DNA of 56,551 nucleotides, the filler included, from Stramenopiles sp. TOSAG23-2 (Eukaryota): NCBI GenBank assembly GCA_900128395.1. It is 5 parts of 5 records of this genome, joined end to end, with 100 filler letters (N's around TTAATTAATTAA, not from the genome) between each part and the next. Parts side by side here need not be neighbours in the genome. Positions count along the whole stretch, not along the records: positions 1 to 11,263 come from LT649949.1; 4 more parts are not named here. The stretch is one strand, 5' to 3'. Under the pieces are notes generated by a model that was given only the letters and a program-made list of their open reading frames with translations, had not been told where the DNA came from and ran no database searches. Of this stretch, positions 2,106-55,100 are shown one piece after another. How positions within the stretch are numbered: the first letter of the stretch is position 1; each line of letters opens with the position of its first letter. The translations under genes were made by a program, and so were the position numbers.

Positions 2106-2557
2106 ATAAAAATTATAAAAAAATAACACATTATAATGTGGAGAAGTAATTTTTATAATTTTTTAAAAGATATCATACGTGTTTTTATTATATATATATA
2201 ATTATACGAGTACCACATAATATATACACACACGTAAAAATTACGAACTTTGTAAAAAAGAATATTTTTTCTTTTAATTCCTCGTACGCGCGATATATGA
2301 TACGTATCATACTTTAACTTTTTTTTTTCACTTTCTCTACATTGACTTTTGTCTTATTTTAAATACATGTCCTCATTTTACTTTTTTCATGTTTCTTTTT
2401 TTTTTTACATTTTTTTTGTTTACAATATATTTTTTAATATTATTTCTTTACACATGTTAAAACGATTAATATGCAGTTTGAATGCATCCAGTATGTTTTG
2501 AACATACTTTTAAAACCGAATTACGCTACCCCTGACCCTAACCTAGCTTTCGTTTAA

Positions 2558-2663
2558 ACAAACACAGTGCAAGATTCAAACTCCACAAACACGGTGCAGG
2601 ATTTTCGCAGGTAACTACAAACATGGTGCAGGATTCAAACTCCACAAACACGGTGCAGGATTA
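2558..2663 (-). repeat. Four-copy AATCCTGCACCGTGTTTGT array directly after/overlapping the EF-hand gene stop codon
   Basis: Plus-strand units acaaacacggtgcaggatt at 2558, 2585, 2617, 2644 (0-2 mismatches); the last unit overlaps the TAA at 2663-2661. Confidence 0.9.
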
Positions 2664-5600
2664 TGGATCTACCATCTCACAAAATGTTGGATAATGGCAT
2701 TGATCTGTTTTTCCTGGAATAATCATACCAAATGCCTTTAACAAGCAATCTTGCTCTTCTTTTAAAGGTGGTAATAAATTTAAAAATCCTAATACGCATG
2801 TAAATTGATTTTTCGTAACTGTTCCCCTATTTGTTTTATCGTAATTTTGAAATGCTTGTTTTACATTCATTCTACGTTCACGTACGATACGTTTTATGTT
2901 CAGTAAAATGGATTGTAATGCATTTTGATTTACACCAGTTGCATCAACGCTAAAACGCCATTTTTTCCACGTTGGCAACCCTTTCGTTGGACTCTGTTCC
3001 AAATGAACGCGTTGTTCAATATCCAAGAAAAATTTATTCCAATACACTTCATCATCATGCTCTGCACTTTTGTATTTTTCACATAATGCTTGTTTCTCTT
3101 GGTATGTTAAACGAAAGTTTGTCCCTAATGCAACATCAAGTGCGCGATGCATTTTACCCATGGAAATCGCACCACTACGAAGTTGATCGTAATCTTTAAA
3201 GAAAACATCTAATGGTATACCACGACTTTTCACATGTTCACGTATGCGTATCATGACATCATCTAAATCTACAGGGGCACTTTTACTTTCCACTTTTGAT
3301 GCTGCGGAAATACTGTAATTTTTCTTTGTTGTTCTTTCTGGTGGATCAATGACATCGCAAAATTTCTTGTAATTCACATCGTATAATTCTTTCGATTGCC
3401 CAAGGGAACGTACTGCAAATTCACTTTTTGCAATTAATGGCATGATATCGGTAAATCGTGTAGTATTAAATACTAAGGATAAACATCGAACGAAGCTATA
3501 TGTATGTATGTGTGTGTGTGTGTGTATTTGTATATGTGTGTGTTAGTTTTGTTGTTTTTATTGTTTTTATACATGGTGTGTGTTTGTGTATATATATATA
3601 TATATAAGTAGTGTGGAAATGTATGTGTGTGTGTATGAATGTAAAGGTTGTCGTATAGTTAAATACGCTAACACTCCACAAACACGGTGCAGGATTACCA
3701 CCCCACAAACACGGTGCAGGATTATCACACGGTGCAGGATTACTCACCGATCTTGTGGTAATAATCCACGTTTATGCTTATCCAATTTTTGAAAGGACAT
3801 GCGTGTTAATATATTTGCCCTTGTTACCGTCTCCTTCATATCTCGTAAATATTCATTCAATTCATACCGTTCCTCTTCAGTCAATGATGTTTCATCCGTA
3901 TAACCAGCATCGATAACTTTTTGCGTTGCGCCCATGACATCCATCGTTGGATTTCTTTCTAAATTTGCAACGGTGAACACAGATTCTAAATCAGCAACAA
4001 ATTGTCTCCAATCAATCGTTGGTTGAAAGGATTTCCACGTATCCTCATCCAATGACCCAGTCGCTAAATAAATTGGTTCTAACATTTGCAATTGTGCTGC
4101 TGATAAATCTGCAGCTTGGCACATTTCTTTAATACCTTGGCGAAATTTATATATATTAATTTTACCAGTTTGCAATGGATCGCTATCACGGAAAAATTCC
4201 TTCGTGCGCAATCGTCTACCACGTACAAATTGACGAATTCTCCACATCACTTGATCTGCATTGCTGCCTTTTGCTCTCCATGTATCGCCAACATATGGTG
4301 TCTCTGACATTGGCACACCGCCGCCGCCATCATCTTTCTTTCCCTTATTATTATCCATTCGTACACTGCCAACTGCGCCGACTTCTTTTAAAAATGGTCG
4401 GTAACGTACCAACGTAGTGCCATATCCACCGCCACTTTGGTATCCATATTTTTTAATAATGCATTCTAATACTTCATCTTCCTCCGGGCGTATTTTACGT
4501 AAAGACAATACATCTTTTAAAAATGGTCGGTAACGTACCAACGTAGTGCCATATCCACCGCCACTTTGGTATCCATATTTTTTAATAATGCATTCTAATA
4601 CTTCATCTTCCTCCGGGCGTATTTTACGTAAAGACAATACACGTTCAAATTGATCACGTGTCACTGCACCCCTTGAAGTGCGATCGAAATCTCTGAATAC
4701 ATCTTGTAAGGACATGCGTGATTGATTTACAATCTGTTTTAAATTTCTTAAACCGATACGTAACAGTTCTTCTTCCCCATCAGTTAATTGTGGCAATTGT
4801 ACACGTGGTGCATGTGCAATTCTCCATGGTGCAGAATCCAATCCTTTTTGCGGGCTACGTTCTAAATTTTTAGCAGTAAATGCTAAATCAATGAAGGAAC
4901 ACATCGAACGGTAATCAACGAAATCATCCGGTCCTGGTATGGCATATTTATCAGCAAGGCTATCCATCTCCGCTTCCGTAAATTCACTTGGTAGACACAT
5001 ATACATGCATGTTTTGAATTTTGGTCGTTTAATAACACCTTTTCTCATTTTATCGAAATCATCGAAAAACATACGTAAGCGTATTTTCCGTTCCGATACG
5101 ATACGTATTAAACGTTGCAAGATTAATTCTCCATCATTTGGTCTCCAACTTGCAGATAAAATTCCCGTATTTGCACCACCACCAGCAGTTGTTGGGTTCA
5201 ACAACTTTGCACTTGCATTTCGCTGTGCAATTTTTTGCTGTTCAATAGCTTCCCGTTCTTTTGGTGTACTTTCCGCATCACGACAAAATGCTTTGTAACA
5301 GATACTTTCACCATCGGAATAACTTTTTGCTAATAGTTCACTTTCCACCATATTAATATCTTTTGGCAATGCCGTTTGCAATGCACGGTGAAAGCGACTT
5401 TCACTTACAAATCCTGTGTTATTTTTATCAAAATCTCGAAAGAAGATTTTTAAAATAACACCACGATCACGTTGTGCTTTGGAAACATTTACCATAATAC
5501 CACGTAATTCAGCGCGTTCCGTGGCAGTTAAAGGCAATCCATATGGTCTTGGATTTGCACCAGCCAACGCTAAACGTACTTGTTTCGTTGGGGAAAGTTC

Positions 5601-6811: not shown

Positions 6812-9800
6812 ATGATGAAAAGAAAGAAAATGGTTTGTCATCGTAATAATAATAATACAAATGATTCTTCCAATCATCATATGAAAAGGAAACAACGCCA
6901 TTATTATTATTATAATAATAATAATAATAATAATAATCAACAACTTTTGTATATTCTTTCTATTGTTGCAATTATATTTGCTTTATTTATATCCCCAACA
7001 TATTCACAAGTTGTGGAAGAAGAGAAACGACCACAACCACCTGCAGAAGAAGTAACTGCAAGAAATGCGGATACTAGCTCATATACAAATATCTTGAAAC
7101 AATTGGAACAACCAACGGGTGCTGCTGCTGCTACGACAAAAGCATCGACTGATGGAGTGAAGGAAGAGAAACAAATTCCAAATACAAAACCAGATATTGC
7201 ATCTCCTGATAATAATATGTTAACATATGAACATAATAAATTTGACTATGTCAAGTTACAAAAGATTCTTCACGATAAAACAGCAGATTTTCAAATGAAA
7301 TTTCTACCAGGGCGTGTGAATGTGAAATTAGGTAAAGTTACAATAGATGCATTAAAAGGTCGTCGTAGTGAAGATATTGGTGCAACTGGAGAAATTAACA
7401 ACATTTTTGACCAAAATAGTAATAGTAAAAATAATAAACAAACAAACGGTAATGGTATTAGTAGTACGAGCCGTGTGTTTGGTATAGATGTAAATGAGAA
7501 ACATGTTCATCATTTATTTAAAGGTGCGATCACCGGTATGGAACAACAACAACAACAAGACGTAGCAAATTTGGCAACTGGGCCAATGGATGCAACTGCG
7601 TTGGAATCCGTAGCGTCTGAATCGAAATTACCACAAGTTGTTGCTTTAAAGGAACAAGTAGAAGATGCAAAATTTGAACTTGCAAAAATACCGATAGATG
7701 ATTTAGAAAATCCATCGTATGTAGGGGCAAAGAAAAAATACGATGATGCGTTAGGACGATTACAAGCATCATTGATGCCCACCGGACCATCATCGTCATC
7801 ATCATCCTTTGCACAACCACCAACTGGTGCTACTGGCAATACCAATTATATAAATTTCGATGCACCAACTGGTAGTGTGAATAATAAGAATAATGAAATG
7901 ATACATAACTCTGCTACGTATCGTGTGTTAAAACCTTCTATCTTGCCATTTGGACCAACTGGTACTCGCAATGGTGAAGGTGCGTTACTCGATGCAACTG
8001 GGTTATTAATAGCTAAAAAACGACATGTTCAATTGTTGAAAGACATTGAAATACTTAAAGATGAATCGGAAATGTTGAAAAAATCAAAACGTATGAACGA
8101 AGTAAAAGTAAGACAATTGCAAATGGAAGAATTAAAACAAAAAGTAGTCAACGTGGAAAAAATGATTCAAGATGCTACTGGTGGTGCAACTGGTGGTACG
8201 TCTACTGGTGGTGGAAATGATGATGATTCGATGTATTTTACGTCAACAAGTACTGGTAATAGTAACGGCAAGAAAAAGAAGAAGAGGGAGGAGGAGAAGA
8301 AAAAGAAGAAGATACCTTTTGATGCAACAGGTACTGAGGCTACGACGACGACGACGTTGACTCCAACAACAACCTGTGATGAATGCAAATGTGATAAAGA
8401 AACGGATCAAGTGCAATATGAAGAAGTTCATGGGCATAAATATTGCTATTGCACATCTGCAAATTTTATCACGAAACGTAGACGTTGTTTAGGGCCAATT
8501 CCAAGGAATAGGCCAACTGCTTGCGAGGCATGTGTCTGTGCAGCAGATGAACAACCATTTGGACAAGTTCATACGTTTAAAACATTTGGTGGTACAAATG
8601 CATGTTTATGCGCTGGTAAAGTATCAGTTGGTCGTAGTAAAATATGTAGTGGTGAATTACCAACGGCATATGAAAAGACGATGGATTGTTCATTAGCAAA
8701 ATGCAGTGGTGGTGGTGGTGATCCGGGCCAACGTATTGTATACCAAGCATTAGGCGATGTCAACCGTTACTATTGCATCGATGTACGTACGAATAATCCA
8801 ATTACGGAGCCAAAACATTGTAAAGGTTTTATCAATGCGAAAAAATTATGTACTACATGTACGTGCAATCCAAATGGACGCGCACCCGAACTGGTATATG
8901 AACGAATGAATGGTAATAACATTTGCTATTGCAAAGGTGCAGATGGAAATACAATTAGTGAAGTGTGCCATGGGCCATTACCAAATGGAAACGTCGCACC
9001 ATCTAATATTGCACCGCGTACGGAATCCAATAATTTAATGGCAACGATGTATGGCAATAAAAAATATGTACATTATCAAAAACATTTATCAATGGAAAGC
9101 AAATCTGCAATACAACGTTTAAGGCAAGCATTGAATATTTTAATCGATAACAATGCCTCGTTCCAAGAAATGTTAAATGTCATGAAAAGTTTATCGCACC
9201 AAGTGAAGGCGGATAAAAATTCAGCGGATTTAATCCATTCCTTAGATGCAAAAGGTTGCGGGCATTCCATTGCGGAATATAGTGCAGAAGTGAAACAAGC
9301 GTTGGAACGTAAGCAACAATGCATTGCAGCCGTGAAAGAACGTGAGGTGGAAAGCAATTCTGCAAAGAAAGAGTTTATTAAATTAGTGGATATGGATAAA
9401 TTTGGAAAAGGTAAAATTGCTGATATTAAACGTAGAGAAAAAGTATTAAGTAAAATTGAACAAGCGGAGATGGCATCTGAATTTGCAACGAAAGCATCGG
9501 AAAAGATCTATAAAACTACTATGAATGCATTGATGGGAAATGTGCAAGAAGGGTTGAAAAATAGTGATCCATCCATCGATGAAGATTTAAAAACAAAACC
9601 AAAACCATCCACAACATCAGCAACGAAAGTCGTGCAACAACAACAAGAACCATCGTCTTTTTTAGAGAAAAAAGAAAATATCGTAGAATCAGATATTCTT
9701 ATCAAACAAGAATCGCAAACTGTTGATAAAGTATTAAATTCAATTGCAAAGAGGAAGATACGTAGGAGGAGGCATAATAATAATATGAGAAGTAGTAGTA

Positions 9801-11061
9801 GTAATGGTGGCAAAACAAATAATAATAAGTATGCAGCAGCAGAGGCAGCATCAAAATCGTTACCAAAAGATCCATCAAAAGACAAAGCGTCTACATTGCA
9901 AATACATAAATTTCCAAGGCATACATATAATAACGTCGTCGATAAATGGCATAAAGAAATCAAGGCACATGATAATTTAGAAGAATTAAGTAAATTAGCC
10001 ATGGGTATTCATTCCACCGGGGAGAAAGTGGAAAAAACGATGGAATTGCCTAATGCTGCGGATCAAATGAAAAATTTGAAATTAACGTTGAAAGATGAGA
10101 AAAAAATGGTGCAAACGAATATCTTAGCAAATGATATGAAACGTGGTAATTACGATCGTTTACGCGTGCGAAATGTCCAAGCGAAAGCGGCATTGGCAAC
10201 GGCGGAGCAAAAATTAAACGATGCAAACGTCATGTTGCGTAATGTGAAAGAATTTAGCAATACCATTTTAAGCAGCTGTAATTTAAAATCAAAGCGTTAC
10301 AATGAAGAAAATAAAGAACGTGTGAAAACCATACGTTTAACGGATGATTTAATCGTAGCAATTGAAGGTGCTATTAATGGTGGTGGTGAAAGTGATTTCC
10401 CGAATGTACGTTTAACGGATGATTTAATCGTAGCAATTGAAGGTGCTATTAATGGTGGTGGTGAAAGTGATTTCCCGAATGAATTGTTGTCCGTGGAAAA
10501 AGAACTGCAAAGTCATGAAGGTCGTAAAAATTACACAAAGAAATTCAATGGTTTAGATTTAGCAAAAGATGATTCTACTAAAAAATATTCTGCCATACAA
10601 CCAGGCAATCAATGTACATACATTGTAAAAGCTGGCGATCATTTACAATCCATTCAACAAAAATTTAACATTGCAAATGAAAAAGATCTTAGAAATGCAA
10701 ATATGAATTTAGAAAATCTGTTTGATACGCAGCATCTGAAAATCGTGTATCCACCTGTCGGTACATACGTTGTCGTTCCGCGTAAATTTATTATTACAAA
10801 GAAATTGAAAAAAATGTGTTCAAAAATACAACGTGCTGTAGAAAATACAACCGTGCCTGTGAACCATTTCGTTTTGGAAGATGATGAAGATATGCAAGAT
10901 CAAACGAGAAACCATACGACGTTGCGTGAAGGTGACGAGAAACATATGGAACAAAATCCATTTTGCCATTCAACAATTATCCACGAACACAACCAATTGA
11001 ATAAATTGTTCGTTTTGGAAGATGATGAAGATATGCAAGATCAAACGAGAAACCATACGAC
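6812..11061 (+). CDS. Large secreted/membrane-anchored protein with four Cys-rich repeats, coiled coils and a LysM domain; 3' end incomplete
   Basis: Hydrophobic LLYILSIVAIIFALFISPTYS segment; CxxCxC...C-x-C...C-x-G-x-x-P repeats 8375-8983; YIVKAGDHLQSIQQKFNI...LRNAN LysM signature at about 10619-10781; ORF ends at a GTGAGT donor. Confidence 0.8.
10332..10481. repeat. Exact 75-nt in-frame tandem duplication
   Basis: 10332-10406 identical to 10407-10481 (RLTDDLIVAIEGAINGGGESDFPN twice). Confidence 0.95.
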
Positions 11062-11063
11062 GT
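10868..11063. repeat. Exact 55-nt direct repeat, 141-nt offset, in frame
   Basis: 10868-10922 identical to 11009-11063 (FVLEDDEDMQDQTRNHTT twice). Confidence 0.95.
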
Positions 11064-11183
11064 GAGTACCTTACCTGCACCGTGTTGGCGTATTCGCCTT
11101 ACCTGCACCGTGTTCCTTACCTGTTCCTTACCTGTTCCTTACCTGCACCGTGTTGGCGTATTCAACTATACGACGACAGCCTC

Positions 11184-11228
<45 letters not shown>

Positions 11229-11263
11229 TATATATATATACATATAACGGAAAAAGAAACAAA
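11062..11263 (+). other. 5' part of an intron carrying CCTGCACCGTGTT repeats, homologous to intron 3496-3747
   Basis: GTGAGT at 11062; core at 11074, 11102, 11142; tail 11150-11174 is 23/25 identical to the tail in the other intron; then (CA)n; no clear acceptor before the contig end. Confidence 0.75.
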
Positions 11264-12608: not shown

Positions 12609-13246
12609 NNNNNNNNNNNNNNNNNNNNNNNNNNNNNNNNNNNNNNNNNNNNNNNNNNNNNNNNNNNNNNNNNNNNNNNNNNNNNNNNNNNNNNNNNNNN
12701 NNNNNNNNNNNNNNNNNNNNNNNNNNNNNNNNNNNNNNNNNNNNNNNNNNNNNNNNNNNNNNNNNNNNNNNNNNNNNNNNNNNNNNNNNNNNNNNNNNNN
12801 NNNNNNNNNNNNNNNNNNNNNNNNNNNNNNNNNNNNNNNNNNNNNNNNNNNNNNNNNNNNNNNNNNNNNNNNNNNNNNNNNNNNNNNNNNNNNNNNNNNN
12901 NNNNNNNNNNNNNNNNNNNNNNNNNNNNNNNNNNNNNNNNNNNNNNNNNNNNNNNNNNNNNNNNNNNNNNNNNNNNNNNNNNNNNNNNNNNNNNNNNNNN
13001 NNNNNNNNNNNNNNNNNNNNNNNNNNNNNNNNNNNNNNNNNNNNNNNNNNNNNNNNNNNNNNNNNNNNNNNNNNNNNNNNNNNNNNNNNNNNNNNNNNNN
13101 NNNNNNNNNNNNNNNNNNNNNNNNNNNNNNNNNNNNNNNNNNNNNNNNNNNNNNNNNNNNNNNNNNNNNNNNNNNNNNNNNNNNNNNNNNNNNNNNNNNN
13201 NNNNNNNNNNNNNNNNNNNNNNNNNNNNNNNNNNNNNNNNNNNNNN
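12609..13246. other. Intra-scaffold sequencing gap (638 N)
   Basis: Run of N without the linker sequence. Confidence 0.98.
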
Positions 13247-14827: not shown

Positions 14828-17689
14828 GTGACTAACATTAAAAAGAAACGTAAGAGAAAGCGTGGGCGTGATGAGGATAATAACAGACATGATGATAATG
14901 ATAATGAAGAAAGTGGGAATGGCAGAGCTGGAGATAGGAAGTCTGCTAAAAAACGTCGGCATATAAGTGCTCCAAAATCATCGAGTAAATTACAACGGGA
15001 TCTCCAAGTTGCAACTCCCGTTTCAAGCGATAACGATGACAATGTTGATATAAGCAAGAAAACAAAAATTAATATAAAAAATACGAAGAAGGAAAAAAAT
15101 ATTTTGGAATCATGCCTATCGAAATCAAATGATGAAGGTCCATTGACTTCCATTTTATCAACATCGGCTTCTTCTGTAAAAAGTAAAGGTATAAATGAAA
15201 ATCGATCGAATGGTTTTCATGCCCATCAAAAGAATAATTCATCGAGCCATGATCGACGTGTTAGTTTTGGTAAATTTAACAGTGGTTTCGGTAGTAGCGA
15301 TTTAAAGTCATCTCCAAGTGGTGGAAGCGCTTTATTTGATGATACCATGAATACGACATCAGACACAAACGGGGGCGTCTTTGGTAATTCTCCTACTTCG
15401 AACACACGATTAGAGTTTGATGAAAAACGTCGTGTTGGCTACAATAACAAAGGTCTTAATGTTTTAAAATCATCAATATCATCTGTATCGCCATCGAAAC
15501 CTGAATTTCATAAATCCCCGGAAGCAACATATGCTTTATGGGGTAATGATCCTACAAAACATAATTTTGACAAGCCATTTAATAAATACGAAGCATCGAA
15601 AAAGAAAAATAACTATCTCAATTTTCATTTACGTAATAATAATAATAGCAGTCCTTATAATAATTATATGAACGCCAATCAACGATATCACCGTCAGCAA
15701 TTATACCAACAAGAACAGCAGCAGCAACAACAACAATATTATTATTCTCATCAACATGATGGTTATTATGAGGCTATGCCGAGCCACTATAATCACACAA
15801 TTTATGAAGAAAGAAATGACAATAATATTTCGCAGCAAGAAAGTCGGGATTTTTTAGCATATCAAGAATTACTGCGTCAAAAACAAAAAACAGGACAGCG
15901 ACCATTGTATCAAACAATGCGTTCCCCATCAGGCGGAGTAATTAATATTGATGAAGAGTATGATCCTCTATATCGCTTGAATCTAATTAATAGTATTGCA
16001 AATCGAAATAGTTATACCAATACTAGCACTCCGCACTCTTCAGTGCCACATCATGAGAGGGGAACTATGGCTTGGGAATTAGAACGTGAAGAGGCAGATC
16101 GTAAACGTATTGAACAGTTGAGAGTTGCAAAATCTAGTCTTCGATCTTTACGAGAGAAAGCGAAAGAGCATAATAGCAATGATAATATTAGTATTAGGTT
16201 TGGTAATAATAACCTTTTACCTGAAATTAAGATAAGCCCTCGCAAAAATGTTTCTAATTTGAATCAAGATACAGATGTAGGCGAAAGTTATTTGCATGGA
16301 GGTAATCAAAATGATAATAGTGCTAATAATATTAATGGCGCAAAAACAACAAAAGTCGATCTTCCAACAAGTAGTGCGCCGATATCATCAAATTTATCTC
16401 ACAAAGAATTATCCAAGTCTTTATTTGCTTTTACTAAAGTTAATATACCTGGTGTAACAGATGGCAGTACTCGTTTTGGATCAAATAGTAGCGTAACATC
16501 GTCTAGAACAGATGTTAATAACTCTAATAAGCATATTTCGTATGGAAATTTTGATGCATACATGGATAATACGGTGCAGGAAGAAGTAGAAAGTACAGAC
16601 AATGATACCAAAATAAAGTTACCAAGCAATAGCGTATCACTAAATAAAGAATTGGAAACACCATTATTTAGTTTCGCAACTACATCCACAAATTGCAGCA
16701 GTAAGGATCAATCTTTTATGGTGGAAAGCAATGTCAATAACTCTAATAAGCATATTTCGTATGGAAATTTTGATGCATATTTTCCACCTGGAGGAGATGA
16801 AATTAATGACGCAATAGAAAGCGAGGAAGAAGAAGGTGAAGATCACGAGGAGGACACTATCAATTCTTCTAGACCATCATTCGAACCCAGAATTGAGCCT
16901 GGTGATCTTGCCCGTGTTGAATTAGCATGGAATCGCAATCTTGATGAAAGAGATGTGGTGATTGATAGTACCAAACATGGAAAAGATCACAGAGACAGGG
17001 ATGTTATATATGAGAGTGAGGTAACACGGAAAGACTACAAATCGTTAGTTCCAGGTTCATGGCTGAGTGATGGTATTATAAATCCGTATATTAAAGTTTT
17101 GAGAAATATATGCCGTATAAATAAGCTGAAAATCCATTGGTGGCAAACATCGTTTTTTATAAAGGTATATAATAACGGCGATTTTGCTTACAATGAAGTG
17201 AAAAGATGGGGCAGAAGGGTTATTGGTAAGAACATTTTTGAAATGGACAAAATGTTTATACCTGTGCATAAAGATGGATCGCATTGGATATTAATCGAAG
17301 CATGTATGAAAAGTAAAGAAATTAAATTTTATGATTCGATGTTAGGCGCGTTAGATGAAAAATATGCATTCAAGATGATGACTACGATTGCCCAGTATAT
17401 CAATAAAGAAGGTGAGCAAAAACAAATTGAAGGTTTGAATGCAATGGATTGGAAAATGTCAATAGTTAAAAATACACCTCAACAACGCAATGGTTATGAT
17501 TGTGGTGTTTTTATGTTGCAAAATGGACGTGCGTTGATGGGAATTATTGATAATGTAAATGGTATACAATTTAATCAAGGTAATATTGATTACTACAGGT
17601 ACTTGATTGGTGCGACATTGATTGATCCGGAGAAATATGCACCTAAAAGTGTTGAACATGCTGAGGAGGAAATGACAATGCAAGTGTAA
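14828..17689 (+). CDS. Ulp1/SENP-family SUMO protease (peptidase C48) with long disordered N-terminus; start uncertain
   Basis: [23 protein letters not shown] (His), FYDS (Asp), [12 protein letters not shown] (Gln/Cys). Confidence 0.92.
16512..16779. repeat. 49-nt in-frame direct repeat (219-nt offset) in the Ulp1 CDS
   Basis: 16512-16560 vs 16731-16779, 48/49 identical ([16 protein letters not shown] twice). Confidence 0.9.
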
Positions 17690-34035: not shown

Positions 34036-37000
34036 AGATCAGAAAAGGATAAAATTAATAAAATTCTAACCCCATTATTCGCAAAATATCGCATTGACAT
34101 ACAGCATGTAGCAAAACTAGAGAAAGATTTAAATACTTATAAATCTAATTTGCAAGCGGAAAAACTATTTTTAGATAAGTTAAGCTCTAAAAATACAGAT
34201 CTTAAAAATGAAATTAGTCAATCGGAAAGTTTATTTCAAGATACTGGTGCAAACGTGAAGGCAATGACAAAATTATCAGACGAATTCCAAGACATCAAAC
34301 GAGTATGGTTCAGTAGGCAGGAATCACTTTCTAAGATTTTCAATGAACAAACAGTTACAGATTTAGCAATTTCTACTATATTTATGGTTTACATCGGCCA
34401 TGCTAATGAAGCTGGTAGAGATCTTCTTTTATGCAATGCTGCTTCAATTTTGGTTGAACATGGATTTCCAATTCAGAAGGAGAAACGTAAGTTTTACACT
34501 GATTTTAACATTGATAAGTTATATGTTTCAATGGAGAGACAATTTCTGAGTAAGGCCATAATGCAAAACTGGAAAACTAATGGTCTTTTTGACAATGATT
34601 CTCATAATTTTGTCAGTTGTATTGGATGCCACTGTTTATCAAAAAAGTATATCCCTATTTTGTTGGACCCTTCCGAATACGGTAAAACTTGGTTAGAACG
34701 TACGCTTACACAGCAACAACTTTCACATGTAAAAAAAATAAACAGTGAAGAGAATTACAATGAAATGGGTGAAGTAGATGTGCTCCAATTTATATTCGAT
34801 GCAAATAAATTTGAAGTAAAAGATGTAGATCTAGCTATTTCCAATAATTATCCAATTGTTTTTACGAATGTAAATTGCGAATGTATTTCGTCATATTTAA
34901 TAGAGTTAATAGAAAAGAAACCTGCCTCAGGTTTATTTTTATGTACGAAATCTGTGGAACCACATGTATCCTTCGCTTTATGTGAATACGACGTCATAAC
35001 ATTTAATTTTGCGGAAACAGCAAATGTAGTTAAAGGACAAGTCTTTGAAGGACTGCTTAAGTATAAAAACAATGATAGATTTAGGAAATATAAATCTTTC
35101 ATGATGGAATTACTAAAGGAGGAAAATGACTTAGATAAAATAGAGCAGAACATTATGAAGATATTGACCAACTGCGACACTAGTATTGTGGATGATGTTT
35201 CAAAAAGCGAAGTTTTGTTACTGATGAACCTCAAATTAGCGCATGACAATTTACGAAGAGTTATTTTATCAAGGAAAGAAACTATTTTAAGTATTAAAAC
35301 AGCAAATCATATAACTGTGAATTCATTGAGCAAATTTTATATACGTACTAAGCAACTTAAATCGATTTGCTACCTGTATCAATTTTCAATTATAGAATTC
35401 TTAGATCGTGTAAAAAATTCGATGAAAGTATATTATCAAAAAAAAAGACAAGTAGGCATGGAAGATGAAAATAAAGAAAATTTGAATATTGTTACATTGA
35501 TAAAGAATTTTCCAGTATTTATGTTATACCAAGTCTTTTTATGGGTTGACAATGTTCTTTTCTTTCGACATAGATACGCATTTGTATTTCTTCTGGCGTT
35601 GGATCATCTTGTAAACATAGTTGAAATTACCCAAGAAGACCTTGACTTGTACATTGCACATGGCGGATTTTCTGCAGTTCATAGCAGTAGCGAGCAGGAC
35701 GACGACGATGATACAGATGCCGATGGTAAAAATAAAAAAAGGAATGATTATCCATTAATACATTCTCTATGGTTGAGCAGTTCCTCCTGGTGTTGCCTCA
35801 AAAATATGAAGAAGCTGGCTGGAATGCAGACTTTAATTAACAGTTTAAAAGAGAAAACCAGTAACGTTGCTTGGGAAACGTGGTATAGTAACTCTATCAA
35901 ACATGGCAACATAGCAGAATTTCCTGTTTTGCAGTCTAGTTTTACCTCTAGTTCTTTTTTAAAAGTCGTTTTCATCACGTCTATAAATCACCCTTTAGCT
36001 TTTAAATGCATACAATCTTTCATTGAACAAACATTAAATCCAATATTTTTAAATGATCATTATGTTAGAATCAAAGATATATACAACGAATCAGCGGAAA
36101 AACAGTTAATATTACTAATTAGTGGCAGCTTATCCGATACCATAGCTGAAGTTGAACGAATAAGTATGCGCAAGCGAATTAAATCTAAAATTATCGACTT
36201 TCATAGCAAAGAAAAATGTAATAATGTAACAGAAGACGTCGAAACTTCGAAACGGAACGGGAATTGGTTAATATGCGACTGCGTAACTTTTGATGTTCAA
36301 ATAATGAATCAAATACTGGATATAATCAATACTGAGAAAGCTTCTACACATGAAAATTTTAGATTATGGGTTTGTACTACAGAAACTGCTTGTCGTCTAC
36401 GACACAAGCAACCATCATTTCCTGAGAAATGGATTATACAATCAGAAAAATATGCAATAGAAATTGCTGAAAATGCTGGATTGGCAATGAAAAATATGTA
36501 TATAAACAATTTTTATATACGAGAGTCATATGTACATGTTGAAAATTTAAGATGGAAAAAAATGCTATACATTATAACTTTATTTCACTCTGTAGTAATC
36601 AATAAATCATTTATTGGAAGTGAAGATAACAATGAAAACTTATTATTGGATTTGAATAGGACAAACTTGAACTCAAGCTTAGCGGTCTTAGAGGCTACAT
36701 TAGAAAAAATGCCAAATGAGACAGATCCTGTGGATAGCCGTTTCGTATCTCTCATAGTAGGTGAAATAATTTATGGTGGATACGCACAAGAGTTAGGCAT
36801 GTTAAATGAGTTTATTGAATTAGGAAATCATTTATTTGTCAATAAAGTTGATAGATCAGAAAAGGATAAAATTAATAAAATTCTAACCCCATTATTCGCA
36901 AAATATGACATTGACATAGACAAATCGTTTAGAACATTTGAAAAGATGCACAAATTTATTATTGAAAATAATACTAATAGTTTCAATGATTTGAGTGACG

Positions 37001-52158: not shown

Positions 52159-55100
52159 TCAATCGACCATGGATTTGATTCGATTTCTAACAATATTAAT
52201 AAAACTCTCAATATATAATTGAGGATTTTGTACTCCTTGCGATCCTGTTTTAAACACAAATGCAATATGTTTCGTTGCTTTCGTAAAACTACATTCAACC
52301 ATATATAAACGTGTGGTATTTCCAGATTTAATTTTTTGTTCTGCATAAAAGTAGAATTTCGAAACACCTTCTTTTTCTCCACTTGCCATGCAATGGATAT
52401 GATCTTTCATCAATAAACGTTCTAACTCACCATCAGGCAATGAAGTTTTTAATCTACTACCCCATAATTTCGTAATATCCATTTGTTGCCATCTTCTTTC
52501 ATATTCTTCTGGCTCCAATGTAGGATTCGATATAAAGTTCAAAAGTGGATATTCTACAGGTTTCTTTTGTTGTTGTAGCTGTGGCATATTATTGTTGCTA
52601 CTTCCAGCCACACTATTTGCTGTCTTTCCAAAATTATTTACATTATTACCAAATGCATTTGCACCTCCACCAGTATTGTTGCTACTTCCAGCCACACTAT
52701 TTGCTGTCTTTCCAAAATTATTTACATTATTACCAAATGCATTTGCACCTCCACCAGTTGTAGCCGTGCTTCTAAATCCAAATAACTTCTGAACCTGATT
52801 ATTGTTATTGTTATTATTGTTATTATCTGTATTATCGTACGTAAAAGAATACCAATGCCAATTTTTTAATATGAAATTTGCGTCCAGCCCCGCTTTTTCA
52901 GCGATGGCAGCGTTCTCTACATAGGATACGTTCGTAACTTTTGATTGCCCAGCATTCATGGTACCTGCATCTATAACAGTTTTGACAATGTATTCTTGGT
53001 ACCCTTGAATACCACCACCAAAACCACCACCAAAACCAAAACCACGTTGAACAATTTTAGCATCATTCAAATAACTTCTGAACTTTTGTGAAAAGCCGGT
53101 AATTTTAACAATTCTACCGCCATCGTGGGGCTGATACACCACACCGCGTGGCACATTAGTTTTAGTACGTGAAAATCCACATTCAGATATTTTTTGGTGT
53201 AATATATACATTTCCAACCTTGCTTCAGCACCTGCTGGTAAATCTTTTACCCCTTTTGCGCTGACTGCGTCTTGAAATTTTATAGTTCCAAGATTTTTTA
53301 CACCTACCATTGTCGCCTGATCAAATATTGCACCATTCACTTTAGCATTACCTAAGTTTACATTACTGAGATTTGCCCCGGTAAAGTTCGAATTACTTAT
53401 ATCAGCATTTGAAAAATCTGCATCTTGTAGAGACCTATTAGGTCCTGAGAAATCAGTACCAACTAAACTTGCCTTTGTAAAATTTGCACGTGTCAAATTT
53501 GCATTTTTAAACTTTGTAAGAAAACTTGTCTTTGCGGAAGTGAAATTTGCGCTTGTTAAATTTGCGTTTTCCAAATTGACATTTATTAAACCGCATTTTG
53601 TAAAATCACCTCCAACTAACTCTAGATCAGAGAAATCAATTCCAGATAAATCGCATTTTTTAAAAATGGCACCTTTCAACGTTGTATTTTTAAAAATGGC
53701 ATCCTTCATCTTAGCAGTAGTAAAGTTTGCTTCACTTAAATTTCCCCCAGAGAAATTAACTGATCGTAAATCGGCATTTGTAAAGTTAACTTTCGACAAA
53801 TTCATGCCAGCCATATCATAACCTTTCAAATCACAATTTTGAAGATTTGCACTTATTAATATCATCTTTTGAAACTTTAAATTTTTCAGTATTGCACTTG
53901 ATAAATTTGCCTCACTAAAATCAACATCAGTAACGTTTGCATCAGTAAAATTACTTTCAACTAAATTTGCTTTAACAAATTTTGTCCTAGTCAAATTTGC
54001 TTTCATAAATTTAACACTTTTTCCATTTAAATTACTAAAATCACAATCACTACATTCACTATCAACAAACAAACCTGATTCAACTTCAGCACTTGTAAAA
54101 TTTGAATTTTGAAGTTCTGCTTTTGTAAAATCAATAATGTCATCTTTCGAGCATATTTTACTAAAATTACACCGAATACATTTACTATTATCAAACACAG
54201 AACCTGACAAGTCAGCAGAAATAAAGACGGAATCTTGCAAAGTTGATTTTGTAAAATCTAACTCCTTACCAGTGCATCTAGAGAAAGATGTTTTTGAACA
54301 CTGTATTTCAGCAAAGTGACCTTCAGATATTTCGCTAGAAACAAATGAACATCTAATTAACTTCGACTTTGTAAAATCAATTGCATAACTCTTTGATTTA
54401 TCAAAATCAATTGATGTGCATTGACTCTCAGTAAAGTCTCCATCTTCAAGTACTGATTCAATGAATTTTGTTTTCTTTAAATTGCATTTAACAAAATTAA
54501 TGCTTTTTCCATTTACCTTACTAAAATCACTATCGGCAATTTCACTTTCTGTAAAAATGGCACCTTCTGCCAATGTGTTTCTAAAAAGCCCATGGCTTAT
54601 TTTACTGCATTTAAAAGATGCGAAAGAAATATTCGTAATACTTTGACTAAAATTTGAATAATTTAAGCAAGCACCATCAACATGAGCTCGATAAAAACTA
54701 GATCCTCGAAAATCAATTTCTGTTAAATCCAATTTTGACATATTCATACCAGACATGTTTCTTTGCCCATTTAAAAGTTGCATTACATCCACGACACTAA
54801 GACGTTTGTAAGCGGTTTTACATAATTTTACAAGTTCAAGTAAATTATAGCGATTGCCTTCGCGTTCAAGCCATTGTAATTGCGAGACATCTTTCAATAT
54901 AGGTAATTGGGATGGGTCTCGTAGATATTCGGCTATTAATTCAAAATAACGTGGATTACCATTAATAATTAGCATATTTTTTTCAGGGCAGTCAGATTTA
55001 TCTTGCCAAATTTCTTGATGCTGACGTAAGGCATCAAAAAAGATACTACGTTCAAATTTTACTAAACAACGCCATGGAAGTTTATAACTTCTACCACTTA

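Follow-up and report, generated by a model that had tools for sequence, protein, structure and literature searches.

A short exon repeat at a contig end of Stramenopiles sp. TOSAG23-2 probably reflects presence/absence polymorphism of an introner-like element

The window analysed here, 56,551 nucleotides (nt) of joined contigs from assembly GCA_900128395.1 of Stramenopiles sp. TOSAG23-2, carries near the end of its first contig (LT649949.1) the same short exon segment twice, once continuing as coding sequence of a gene for a secreted Cys-rich/EGF-type protein and once running into a repeat-bearing, intron-like sequence. The whole arrangement is probably a false duplication that arose because an introner-like element is genuinely polymorphic for presence and absence in this gene, its insertion site being displayed in both the empty and the filled state. 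Insertion of the element, rather than precise loss, would lie behind the polymorphism, and the element is predicted to be spliced at this site.

The Repeated Exon Segment and Its Two Continuations

The window consists of five pieces of 11263, 11247, 11225, 11221 and 11195 nt, in descending size, separated by four identical copies of an artificial linker (N44-TTAATTAATTAA-N44). A repeat search and an exact-repeat script recovered an exact direct repeat of 55 nt, 100% identical, at 10868-10922 and 11009-11063, in agreement with an earlier note on this DNA that had reported a 55-nt exon segment present twice. The identity between the copies is far beyond chance, and their start-to-start spacing is 141 nt, or 47 codons, with both in the same frame. 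Downstream of copy 1 (TGCGTGAAGG...) the long open reading frame (ORF) that begins at 6815 remains open past 10922, so that this copy does code on in frame, as had been stated. Downstream of copy 2 (GAGTACCTTACC...) the shared GT becomes part of GTGAGTA, a good 5′ splice site. Placing the split, CATACGAC|GT..., exactly at the GT is a fair description, except that the identity includes the GT itself (10921-10922 = 11062-11063) and the first differing bases are 10923 and 11064. Read in frame, copy 2 ends in ...ACG ACG TGA, with GTGAGT giving an immediate stop codon. Copy 2 and the intron-like stretch make up the final 255 bases of the contig; GTGAGTA is indeed followed by the repeats of the proposed intron, but that stretch is cut after 202 nt by the contig end, where the linker follows, and its 3′ end lies outside the window. 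The features of this region are as follows.

6815..11008, + strand: 5′ part of a long single-exon stretch in the gene for a secreted Cys-rich/EGF-type protein, from the ORF and near-identical relatives
10868..10922, + strand: copy 1 of the 55-nt block, a genuine exon with an unoccupied site; GT at 10921-10922, within a Thr codon (phase 2)
10923..11008, + strand: exon past the insertion site (LREGDEKHMEQNPFCHSTIIHEHNQLNKL), ending at the false join 11008/11009
11009..11061, + strand: copy 2 of the block, an exon end from the element-bearing allele, out of place; 100% identical to 10868-10920
11062..11263, + strand: first 202 nt of the introner-like element, comprising GTGAGTA, three CCTGCACCGTGT repeats, the core GCGTATTCAACTATACGAC (11156-11174), (CA)n and (TA)n; cut by the contig end
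11264..11363, no strand: contig-joining linker (N44-TTAATTAATTAA-N44), artificial; an unrelated contig lies beyond 11363

Empty and Filled Alleles of the Insertion Site

Logan contigs from four runs were aligned to 10200-11263: X1, a small "organism A" DNA run; X5 and X6, marine metagenomes; and X7, a polyA metatranscriptome. X7 is RNA, and the DNA library type of the other three is a guess. For X5, ∼55% of the run was covered, and its single contig stops exactly at 10922, so that its lack of cover beyond that point is no evidence either way. In addition, 18 related ORFs, the members of two protein clusters around P0002 and P0006, were classed by their behaviour at the insertion site; these classes were taken from gene calls, and those that stop at or start after the site are indirect evidence.

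Three short X1 contigs together display both states of the site. Record 3 (93 nt, depth 53.2, 0 mismatches) spans 10886-10978 and represents the empty site; copy 1 is also spanned without a break by contigs of X6 (DNA) and X7 (RNA). The second X1 contig, record 6 (76 nt, depth 36.2), comprises the equivalent of 10886-10922 followed by 39 nt of element-side sequence (GTGAGTACC...) and maps to 11027-11102 with three mismatches to the window, including G for A at the equivalent of 10916. Record 4 (96 nt, depth 34.3) comprises 38 letters ending in ...ATACAG followed by 10921-10978, with C for G at 10948; the earlier note had proposed checking whether the 3′ end of the intron rejoins the exon, and in this record ...ACAG joins it exactly at GTTGCGTGAAGG (10921 onward). 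The empty form is thus the filled form minus GT...AG at the site, and the depths of the filled (∼35) and empty (53) contigs add up to approximately that of the shared downstream contig (95.7). The two forms also differ at flanking single-nucleotide polymorphisms (SNPs), the filled contigs carrying G at the equivalent of 10916 and C at 10948 and the empty contig carrying A and G, and the empty form is therefore not merely the spliced product of the filled allele.

The related ORFs fall into corresponding classes. Five read through the site as NHTT|LREG (P0002, P0050, P0053, P0054, and P0056); three end exactly at ...DQTRNHTT on contigs 197-333 nt longer than the ORF (P0051, P0052, and P0055), as expected from the in-frame TGA within GTGAGT; six start exactly after it, at the TTG codon of LREGDEK, called as MREGDEK (P0006, P0044, P0045, P0046, P0048, and P0049); and four are without cover. 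The suggestion that intron-less and intron-containing alleles had both been captured is accordingly borne out, by an empty-site contig and both filled junctions in X1, by the differing flanking SNPs, and by the ORF classes. The presence/absence polymorphism of the introner-like element is very probably genuine, and with it a recent intron gain. The window by itself, truncated and ending in a linker, does not amount to the direct evidence of such a gain that had been claimed for it; the external data make the case.

Two other explanations dispense with the polymorphism. According to the first, every copy of the genome would carry the element and the "empty" sequences would be spliced transcripts or cDNA, for which the guessed library type of X1, X5, and X6, the RNA nature of X7, and the mRNA-like appearance of P0050, which is without the element at all four sites discussed below and whose contig is almost entirely ORF, could be cited. 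The empty and filled X1 contigs nonetheless differ at two flanking SNPs, and P0053 (on a 9069-nt contig), P0054, and P0002 are empty here yet read into unspliced element elsewhere in the gene, a pattern that suits genomic mosaics better than mature mRNA, although partly spliced pre-mRNA is conceivable; this explanation is therefore regarded as very improbable. According to the second, there would be no intron at all, and copy 2 would end in a true stop (ACG ACG TGA) followed by a repeat-rich 3′ untranslated region (UTR). An in-frame TGA does stand directly after copy 2, and another copy of the repeat does lie in a 3′ UTR, at 2540-2662. This idea is contradicted by P0050 and P0053, in which the gene goes on for >1000 residues beyond the insertion site, and by the ...ACAG end of X1 record 4 that rejoins the exon at 10921; moreover, in the neighbouring EF-hand gene the same start, GTGAGTA plus repeats, belongs to an intron proven to restore the frame on removal. 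It is scarcely credible.

The Junction Between the Two Copies

The join at 11008/11009, on which the side-by-side arrangement depends, was crossed by no contig piece in any of the four runs (X1, X5, X6, and X7). In three of them (X1, X6, and X7) the contig over 10949-11008, with a total length of 574 nt in X1 (depth 95.7), 964 nt in X6, and 4181 nt in X7, instead continues unbroken past 11008 for hundreds of bases of other sequence, translating VTYGHEEFCG. Added together, the listed X1 pieces account for the depth bins over 10992-11063, and there is therefore no hidden piece over 11009-11026. The ORFs agree with the contigs: all 12 near-identical ones that reach ...NKL or ...HKL continue with (V/I/L)TYGHEEFCGKHG, the same EGF-rich sequence, and none of the 12 has FVLEDDED, the continuation created by the join. 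The distant P0005 likewise continues past 11008, with NVYGADEFCGKHG.

Because the join is absent from these data, and because both the runs and the related ORFs go on into the rest of the gene, the side-by-side copies can be assigned with high confidence to an assembly artefact at the contig end. The features of a haplotype-derived false duplication are present: an identical block, a position 200 nt from the contig end, a junction in 0/4 runs and 0/12 ORFs, and, in X1, an empty record (3) and a filled record (6) that both begin at the equivalent of 10886 and fork after the GT.

The other possibility raised in the earlier note, a genomic duplication followed by insertion at the GT, finds no counterpart in those runs and ORFs. 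As a full rival it would be a real 141-bp in-frame tandem duplication, with the element inserted in, or duplicated together with, the second copy. Its attraction lies in the in-frame spacing (141 nt = 47 codons) and in the company that the repeat keeps, namely two other perfect in-frame duplications on the same contig and a fourth on another; selection would explain lengths that are all multiples of 3 better than a frame-blind artefact would. The three further duplications are the following.

4384..4641, − strand: perfect 129-nt × 2.0 tandem duplication (43 codons) in the EF-hand gene, in this assembly only
10332..10481, + strand: perfect 75-nt × 2.0 tandem duplication (25 codons) in the Cys-rich/EGF-type gene, in this assembly only
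52590-52758, strand not given: perfect 84-nt × 2.0 tandem duplication, coding, on the last contig

Two of these are likewise missing from the other sequences compared. The 129-nt unit is single in the DNA of metagenome loci L006 and L007 and in 12/12 covering ORFs of the P0007 cluster; X5 DNA and X7 RNA contigs skip exactly 75 nt at the 75-nt unit, which is single in 4/4 covering ORFs of the P0002 cluster and also in P0003 and P0004. The missing junction weighs in the same direction, all the more as contigs of the organism-A run pass both 10868 and 11008 unbroken, and the 3′ end of the filled allele rejoins at 10921 with ordinary flanks. A real duplication is thus improbable.

Somewhat less improbable, but still unlikely, is a physical chimera formed during single-cell whole-genome amplification, by template switching between alleles or within a molecule. 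At 10-21 million contig letters, the three runs of organism A are very small, as would be expected of single-cell amplified genomes, and several perfect local duplications are private to the assembly. Against a chimera stand the lack of any trace of the junction in the X1 contigs and the length of the block, since a random switch point would account less well than a k-mer vertex for a 55-nt block whose end coincides with the allele fork. Whether chimera or assembler error, the biology is the same: an artefactual arrangement and two real alleles.

Proposed Origin of the Arrangement

Under the preferred reading, an assembly artefact built on two real alleles, the population or cell behind the assembly would hold one allele that is uninterrupted at ...CATACGAC|GTTGCG... 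and another in which a mobile introner-like element, a few hundred bases long, had inserted at that point in sense orientation. The element would bring its own GTGAGTA 5′ splice site and its own ...ACAG 3′ end, and its excision would therefore restore the frame exactly. In the assembly graph the alleles would run together along the exon as far as the GT and part there. From that point the assembler would take the empty branch for 86 nt and halt at 11008, just before a population-variable codon (V in nine, I in two, and L in one of the 12 related ORFs), which would constitute a further branching of the graph, at which a contig is expected to end. The other branch would be appended next, as the shared 55-mer and ∼200 nt of element, until the contig died in microsatellites, and the resulting text would read exon, 86 nt, the same exon, element.

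The duplicated block is exactly 55 nt long and ends at the allele fork, and 55 is a usual largest default k for short reads; the 55-nt block and the 86-nt stretch are what a de Bruijn graph with k = 55 would be expected to yield. The exact route through the assembler is a reconstruction, and the same text would result if a single-cell library contained an amplification chimera, the two routes being inseparable here.

Several points weigh against this account. The source library may lie outside the runs compared; X1 may derive from another library, since 3 of the 76 positions of its filled contig (record 6) differ from the window. A real junction at low frequency, or an amplification chimera, is conceivable, since contigs drop rare variants. 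The four perfect duplication lengths (129, 75, 84, and 141) are all multiples of 3, for which the frame-blind chance is ∼0.012, and a small probability is therefore kept for real, very recent duplications. On the side of the polymorphism, some of the "empty" ORFs may be spliced mRNA, for example P0050, whose ORF fills nearly its whole contig; the X7 polyA RNA contig is without the element, and a spliced transcript and an empty allele look alike there. The 38 letters of X1 record 4 are assigned to the element solely because the EF-hand intron has a similar 3′ end, the DNA nature of X1, X5, and X6 is guessed, and the start and stop classes of the ORFs come from gene calls rather than from contig DNA.

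The Element Family

The 12-nt motif CCTGCACCGTGT occurs ten times in the window, nine times exactly and once with a single mismatch, where chance would give 0.05. A clear intron of the neighbouring EF-hand gene holds three of the exact matches, and the element as a whole is built of 27-28-nt tandem repeats, a core, and microsatellites. The copies in the window number three, all on one contig; besides the truncated one at 11062..11263 they are the following.

3496..3747, − strand: full-length 252-nt copy forming a GT..AG intron, phase 2, in the EF-hand gene; excision gives a 982-codon stop-free frame
2540..2662, − strand: partial or related copy of the element's repeat region, starting at the EF-hand TAA stop; in the 3′ UTR, in sense orientation, not an intron

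The EF-hand intron has the same order of parts, from GTGAGTA through three repeats, the core GCGTATTTAACTATACGAC, and (CA)n/(TA)n to the end ...CATACATATAG. The C-terminus of the EF-hand protein, ...MVDP, matches the tails of P0057-P0059, and the 3′ UTR copy that begins at its stop codon implies that the element family is not confined to introns.

Relatives of the EF-hand protein at 59-62% identity are contiguous across the 3496-3747 site, and the intron therefore looks like a lineage-specific gain. Contiguous sequences include P0008 and P0009 (both 936 aa) as well as P0057-P0059 (556-937 aa), the last three read from 1.9-3.3 kb contigs that are possibly spliced RNA. Among the 15 members listed for the EF-hand cluster, 11 stop at ...LLPQDR, indicating that the element is present, three read through, and one falls short of the site. 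Named relatives are found in Phytophthora (24%), Aureococcus (26%), chytrids, and animals. The neighbouring short-chain dehydrogenase gene returned only generic short-chain dehydrogenase clusters in the Protein Atlas, mostly bacterial.

Three further sites within the Cys-rich/EGF-type gene show the same behaviour as the studied one, on the evidence of X1 loose ends and of the read-through tails of P0002, P0053, and P0054. Site KK|VDYF is filled in P0054, P0006, and P0048 and read through in P0002, P0049, P0050, and P0053; site EKIG|EKIDD is filled in P0053 and an X1 loose end and read through in P0002 and P0050; and site KEG|LGF is filled in P0002 and an X1 loose end and read through in P0050. 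The studied site, these three, and the site in the EF-hand gene share similar starts (GTGAGTA or GTAGGTAT, then CCTGCACCGTGT within 12 nt) and the same core.

A scan of JGI metagenome contigs with the core returned seven loci, of which six are true copies from three or four places; L004 was rejected as a chance match. L006 and L007 are orthologous filled copies of the EF-hand site, and L001/L002 and L003/L005 are four copies at one or two other places. L001/L002 share the element architecture of 11062..11263 and the EF-hand intron, and X6 and X7 contigs belong with L001 and L002 to the same element subfamily at another locus (11137-11212 compared with L001:976-1051 and L002:439-512). The L001/L002-type copy begins ∼30 nt inside an apparent intron starting GTATTT, from which it follows that not every copy supplies the splice site itself. 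In X1, the depth over the core is 174, compared with 35-96 in single-copy flanks. At L003:3873-4371 and L005:1-372 the element lies, by eye, between ∼100-nt direct repeats with few mismatches, and a degenerate further copy follows ∼130 nt on, so that these loci look like a tandem array of element and flank.

The family has several of the properties by which introners are recognised: several similar copies, each an intron at unrelated positions, in the two or three genes seen; GT..AG ends, with the frame restored on removal at both the EF-hand and the studied site; and presence/absence among very close relatives at the studied site and three others. All genic copies seen are in sense orientation. 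No convincing target-site duplication was found at the two sites with both ends known, few as these are, the studied site sharing only the GT and the EF-hand site being without a flanking repeat, and no terminal inverted repeat was seen by eye in one 252-nt copy, for which no inverted-repeat search was run. The predicted RNA fold of that copy has no unusual stability (z = −0.77, with 38/200 shuffles folding as well or better), and this single fold thus does not support a structure-based mechanism. The host G+C content is ∼33%.

The Gene Carrying the Site

The true continuation of the Cys-rich/EGF-type gene (...KL|VTYGHEEFCGKHG..., >500 more residues) lies outside the window. A Pfam search of the 1416-aa ORF gave one weak, sub-threshold LysM-like match only; the near-identical P0002, P0050, and P0053 extend past 11008 into EGF_Teneurin/EGF_2 domains. 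P0002, a near-identical 786-aa protein from another assembly, aligns to the end of the ORF with the doubled 25-residue unit present once and NHTT|LREG uninterrupted, and after ...HKL it continues as ITYGHEEFCGKHG... and then for >500 residues with EGF-type domains, at the point where the window restarts with copy 2; its residues 263-761 have no match anywhere in the whole window by tblastn. Two orthologues at a greater distance, P0003 and P0005 (58-61% identical), are uninterrupted across the insertion region, being without the element at the site or spliced; they fit absence of the element as the older state.

Two other irregularities were observed in this gene. A low-depth 188-nt contig in X6 joins it at 10344 with an unlike left side, and in X1 a contig break at the start of the 75-nt unit (10361|10407) coincides with a doubling of depth, from 33.9 to 67. 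Both may represent further structural polymorphism in the same gene.

Other Repeats in the Window

Elsewhere in the window, an exact 54-nt repeat at 34036-34089 and 36853-36906 starts the fourth contig and recurs 2817 nt (939 codons) on, the two sequences being only loosely similar beyond it; it may again be due to a graph vertex beside a contig end, or else be a genuine repeat within a gene. An exact 44-nt repeat at 16517-16560 and 16736-16779, with a spacing of 219 nt (73 codons), lies inside a long ORF, and both repeats look like ordinary in-gene repeats or are undecided. The one-mismatch match to CCTGCACCGTGT, at 16569 near the 44-nt repeat, looks like chance. The second contig contains a run of 638 N at 12609-13246, a scaffold gap from which it follows that the assembly was scaffolded.

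Relation to Known Systems and Significance

The kind of phenomenon described here is already known, and the present case may be a fresh example in a possibly new family within the known class of intron-generating elements. In wild marine populations of Micromonas, introner elements are polymorphic for presence and absence (Simmons et al., 2015, PMC4540971). As there, near-identical short introns with their own splice signals occur here at unrelated positions, in sense orientation and in varied phases, and are present or absent among near-identical ocean sequences (PMC4540971). Unlike the Micromonas elements, to which it has no sequence relationship, the present element consists of 27-28-nt tandem repeats, a core, and microsatellites; and whereas conserved secondary-structure features are described for Micromonas (PMC4540971), the one copy folded here was not unusually stable.

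More generally, 5% of all species searched are reported to contain Introners (Gozashti et al., 2022, PMC9860276), non-autonomous mobile elements that make introns on insertion into genes, which is how the present element would behave. Part of those families have target-site duplications or terminal inverted repeats (PMC9860276), whereas the present element shows at most the shared GT, at two sites. Multi-copy intron families also include the fungal introner-like elements (PMC4457414), which are unrelated in sequence and host, and intron presence/absence likewise segregates within species in Daphnia populations (PMC4202315). A literature search found no introner paper for MAST-4, heterotrophic-flagellate, uncultured, or single-cell genomes, from which nothing firm follows. 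The intron gains in Daphnia are reportedly mostly unique sequences attributed to break repair, not a repeated element.

Assembly errors in which unresolved haplotypes appear as false duplications form a known class (Ko et al., 2022, PMC9516828), and the present arrangement resembles them in placing two allelic versions of a locus in series at a contig end, where they mimic a duplication. It differs from the cases in that source in its scale, 55 nt rather than genes, and in that the underlying heterozygous difference is an element insertion, of which both states are displayed. A caution follows for fragmented assemblies from wild or single-cell material: where a short perfect repeat lies beside a contig end, a graph artefact is a likelier explanation than a duplication. 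Any gene model derived from the present contig would include a spurious repeat of 47 codons, a spurious stop codon, and spurious duplications of 25 and 43 residues.

The origin of new spliceosomal introns is a long-standing question, for which cases that are still polymorphic are the most informative. Here a misassembly shows both states of one insertion site, and public ocean data confirm both. Each of the four sites in the Cys-rich/EGF-type gene is occupied in some and empty in other near-identical sequences, across many ocean samples and different years; the fifth site, in the EF-hand gene, is filled in most sequences, its few read-throughs being possibly spliced RNA. Whether these at least five sites, four of them in one gene, reflect an intron-generating family currently mobile in a widespread, probably uncultured marine protist is judged an even chance, and the case would gain in interest should the family turn out to be spreading actively in a protist that is abundant and uncultured. 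The lack of the transposon hallmarks looked for leaves room for an unusual insertion mechanism. If the family is indeed mobile, the Cys-rich/EGF-type gene would be an insertion hot-spot with a cause open to study, and intron gain could be watched in metagenomes as a population process, through per-site allele frequencies, linkage to SNPs, and geography, providing a concrete system for measuring intron gain in nature.

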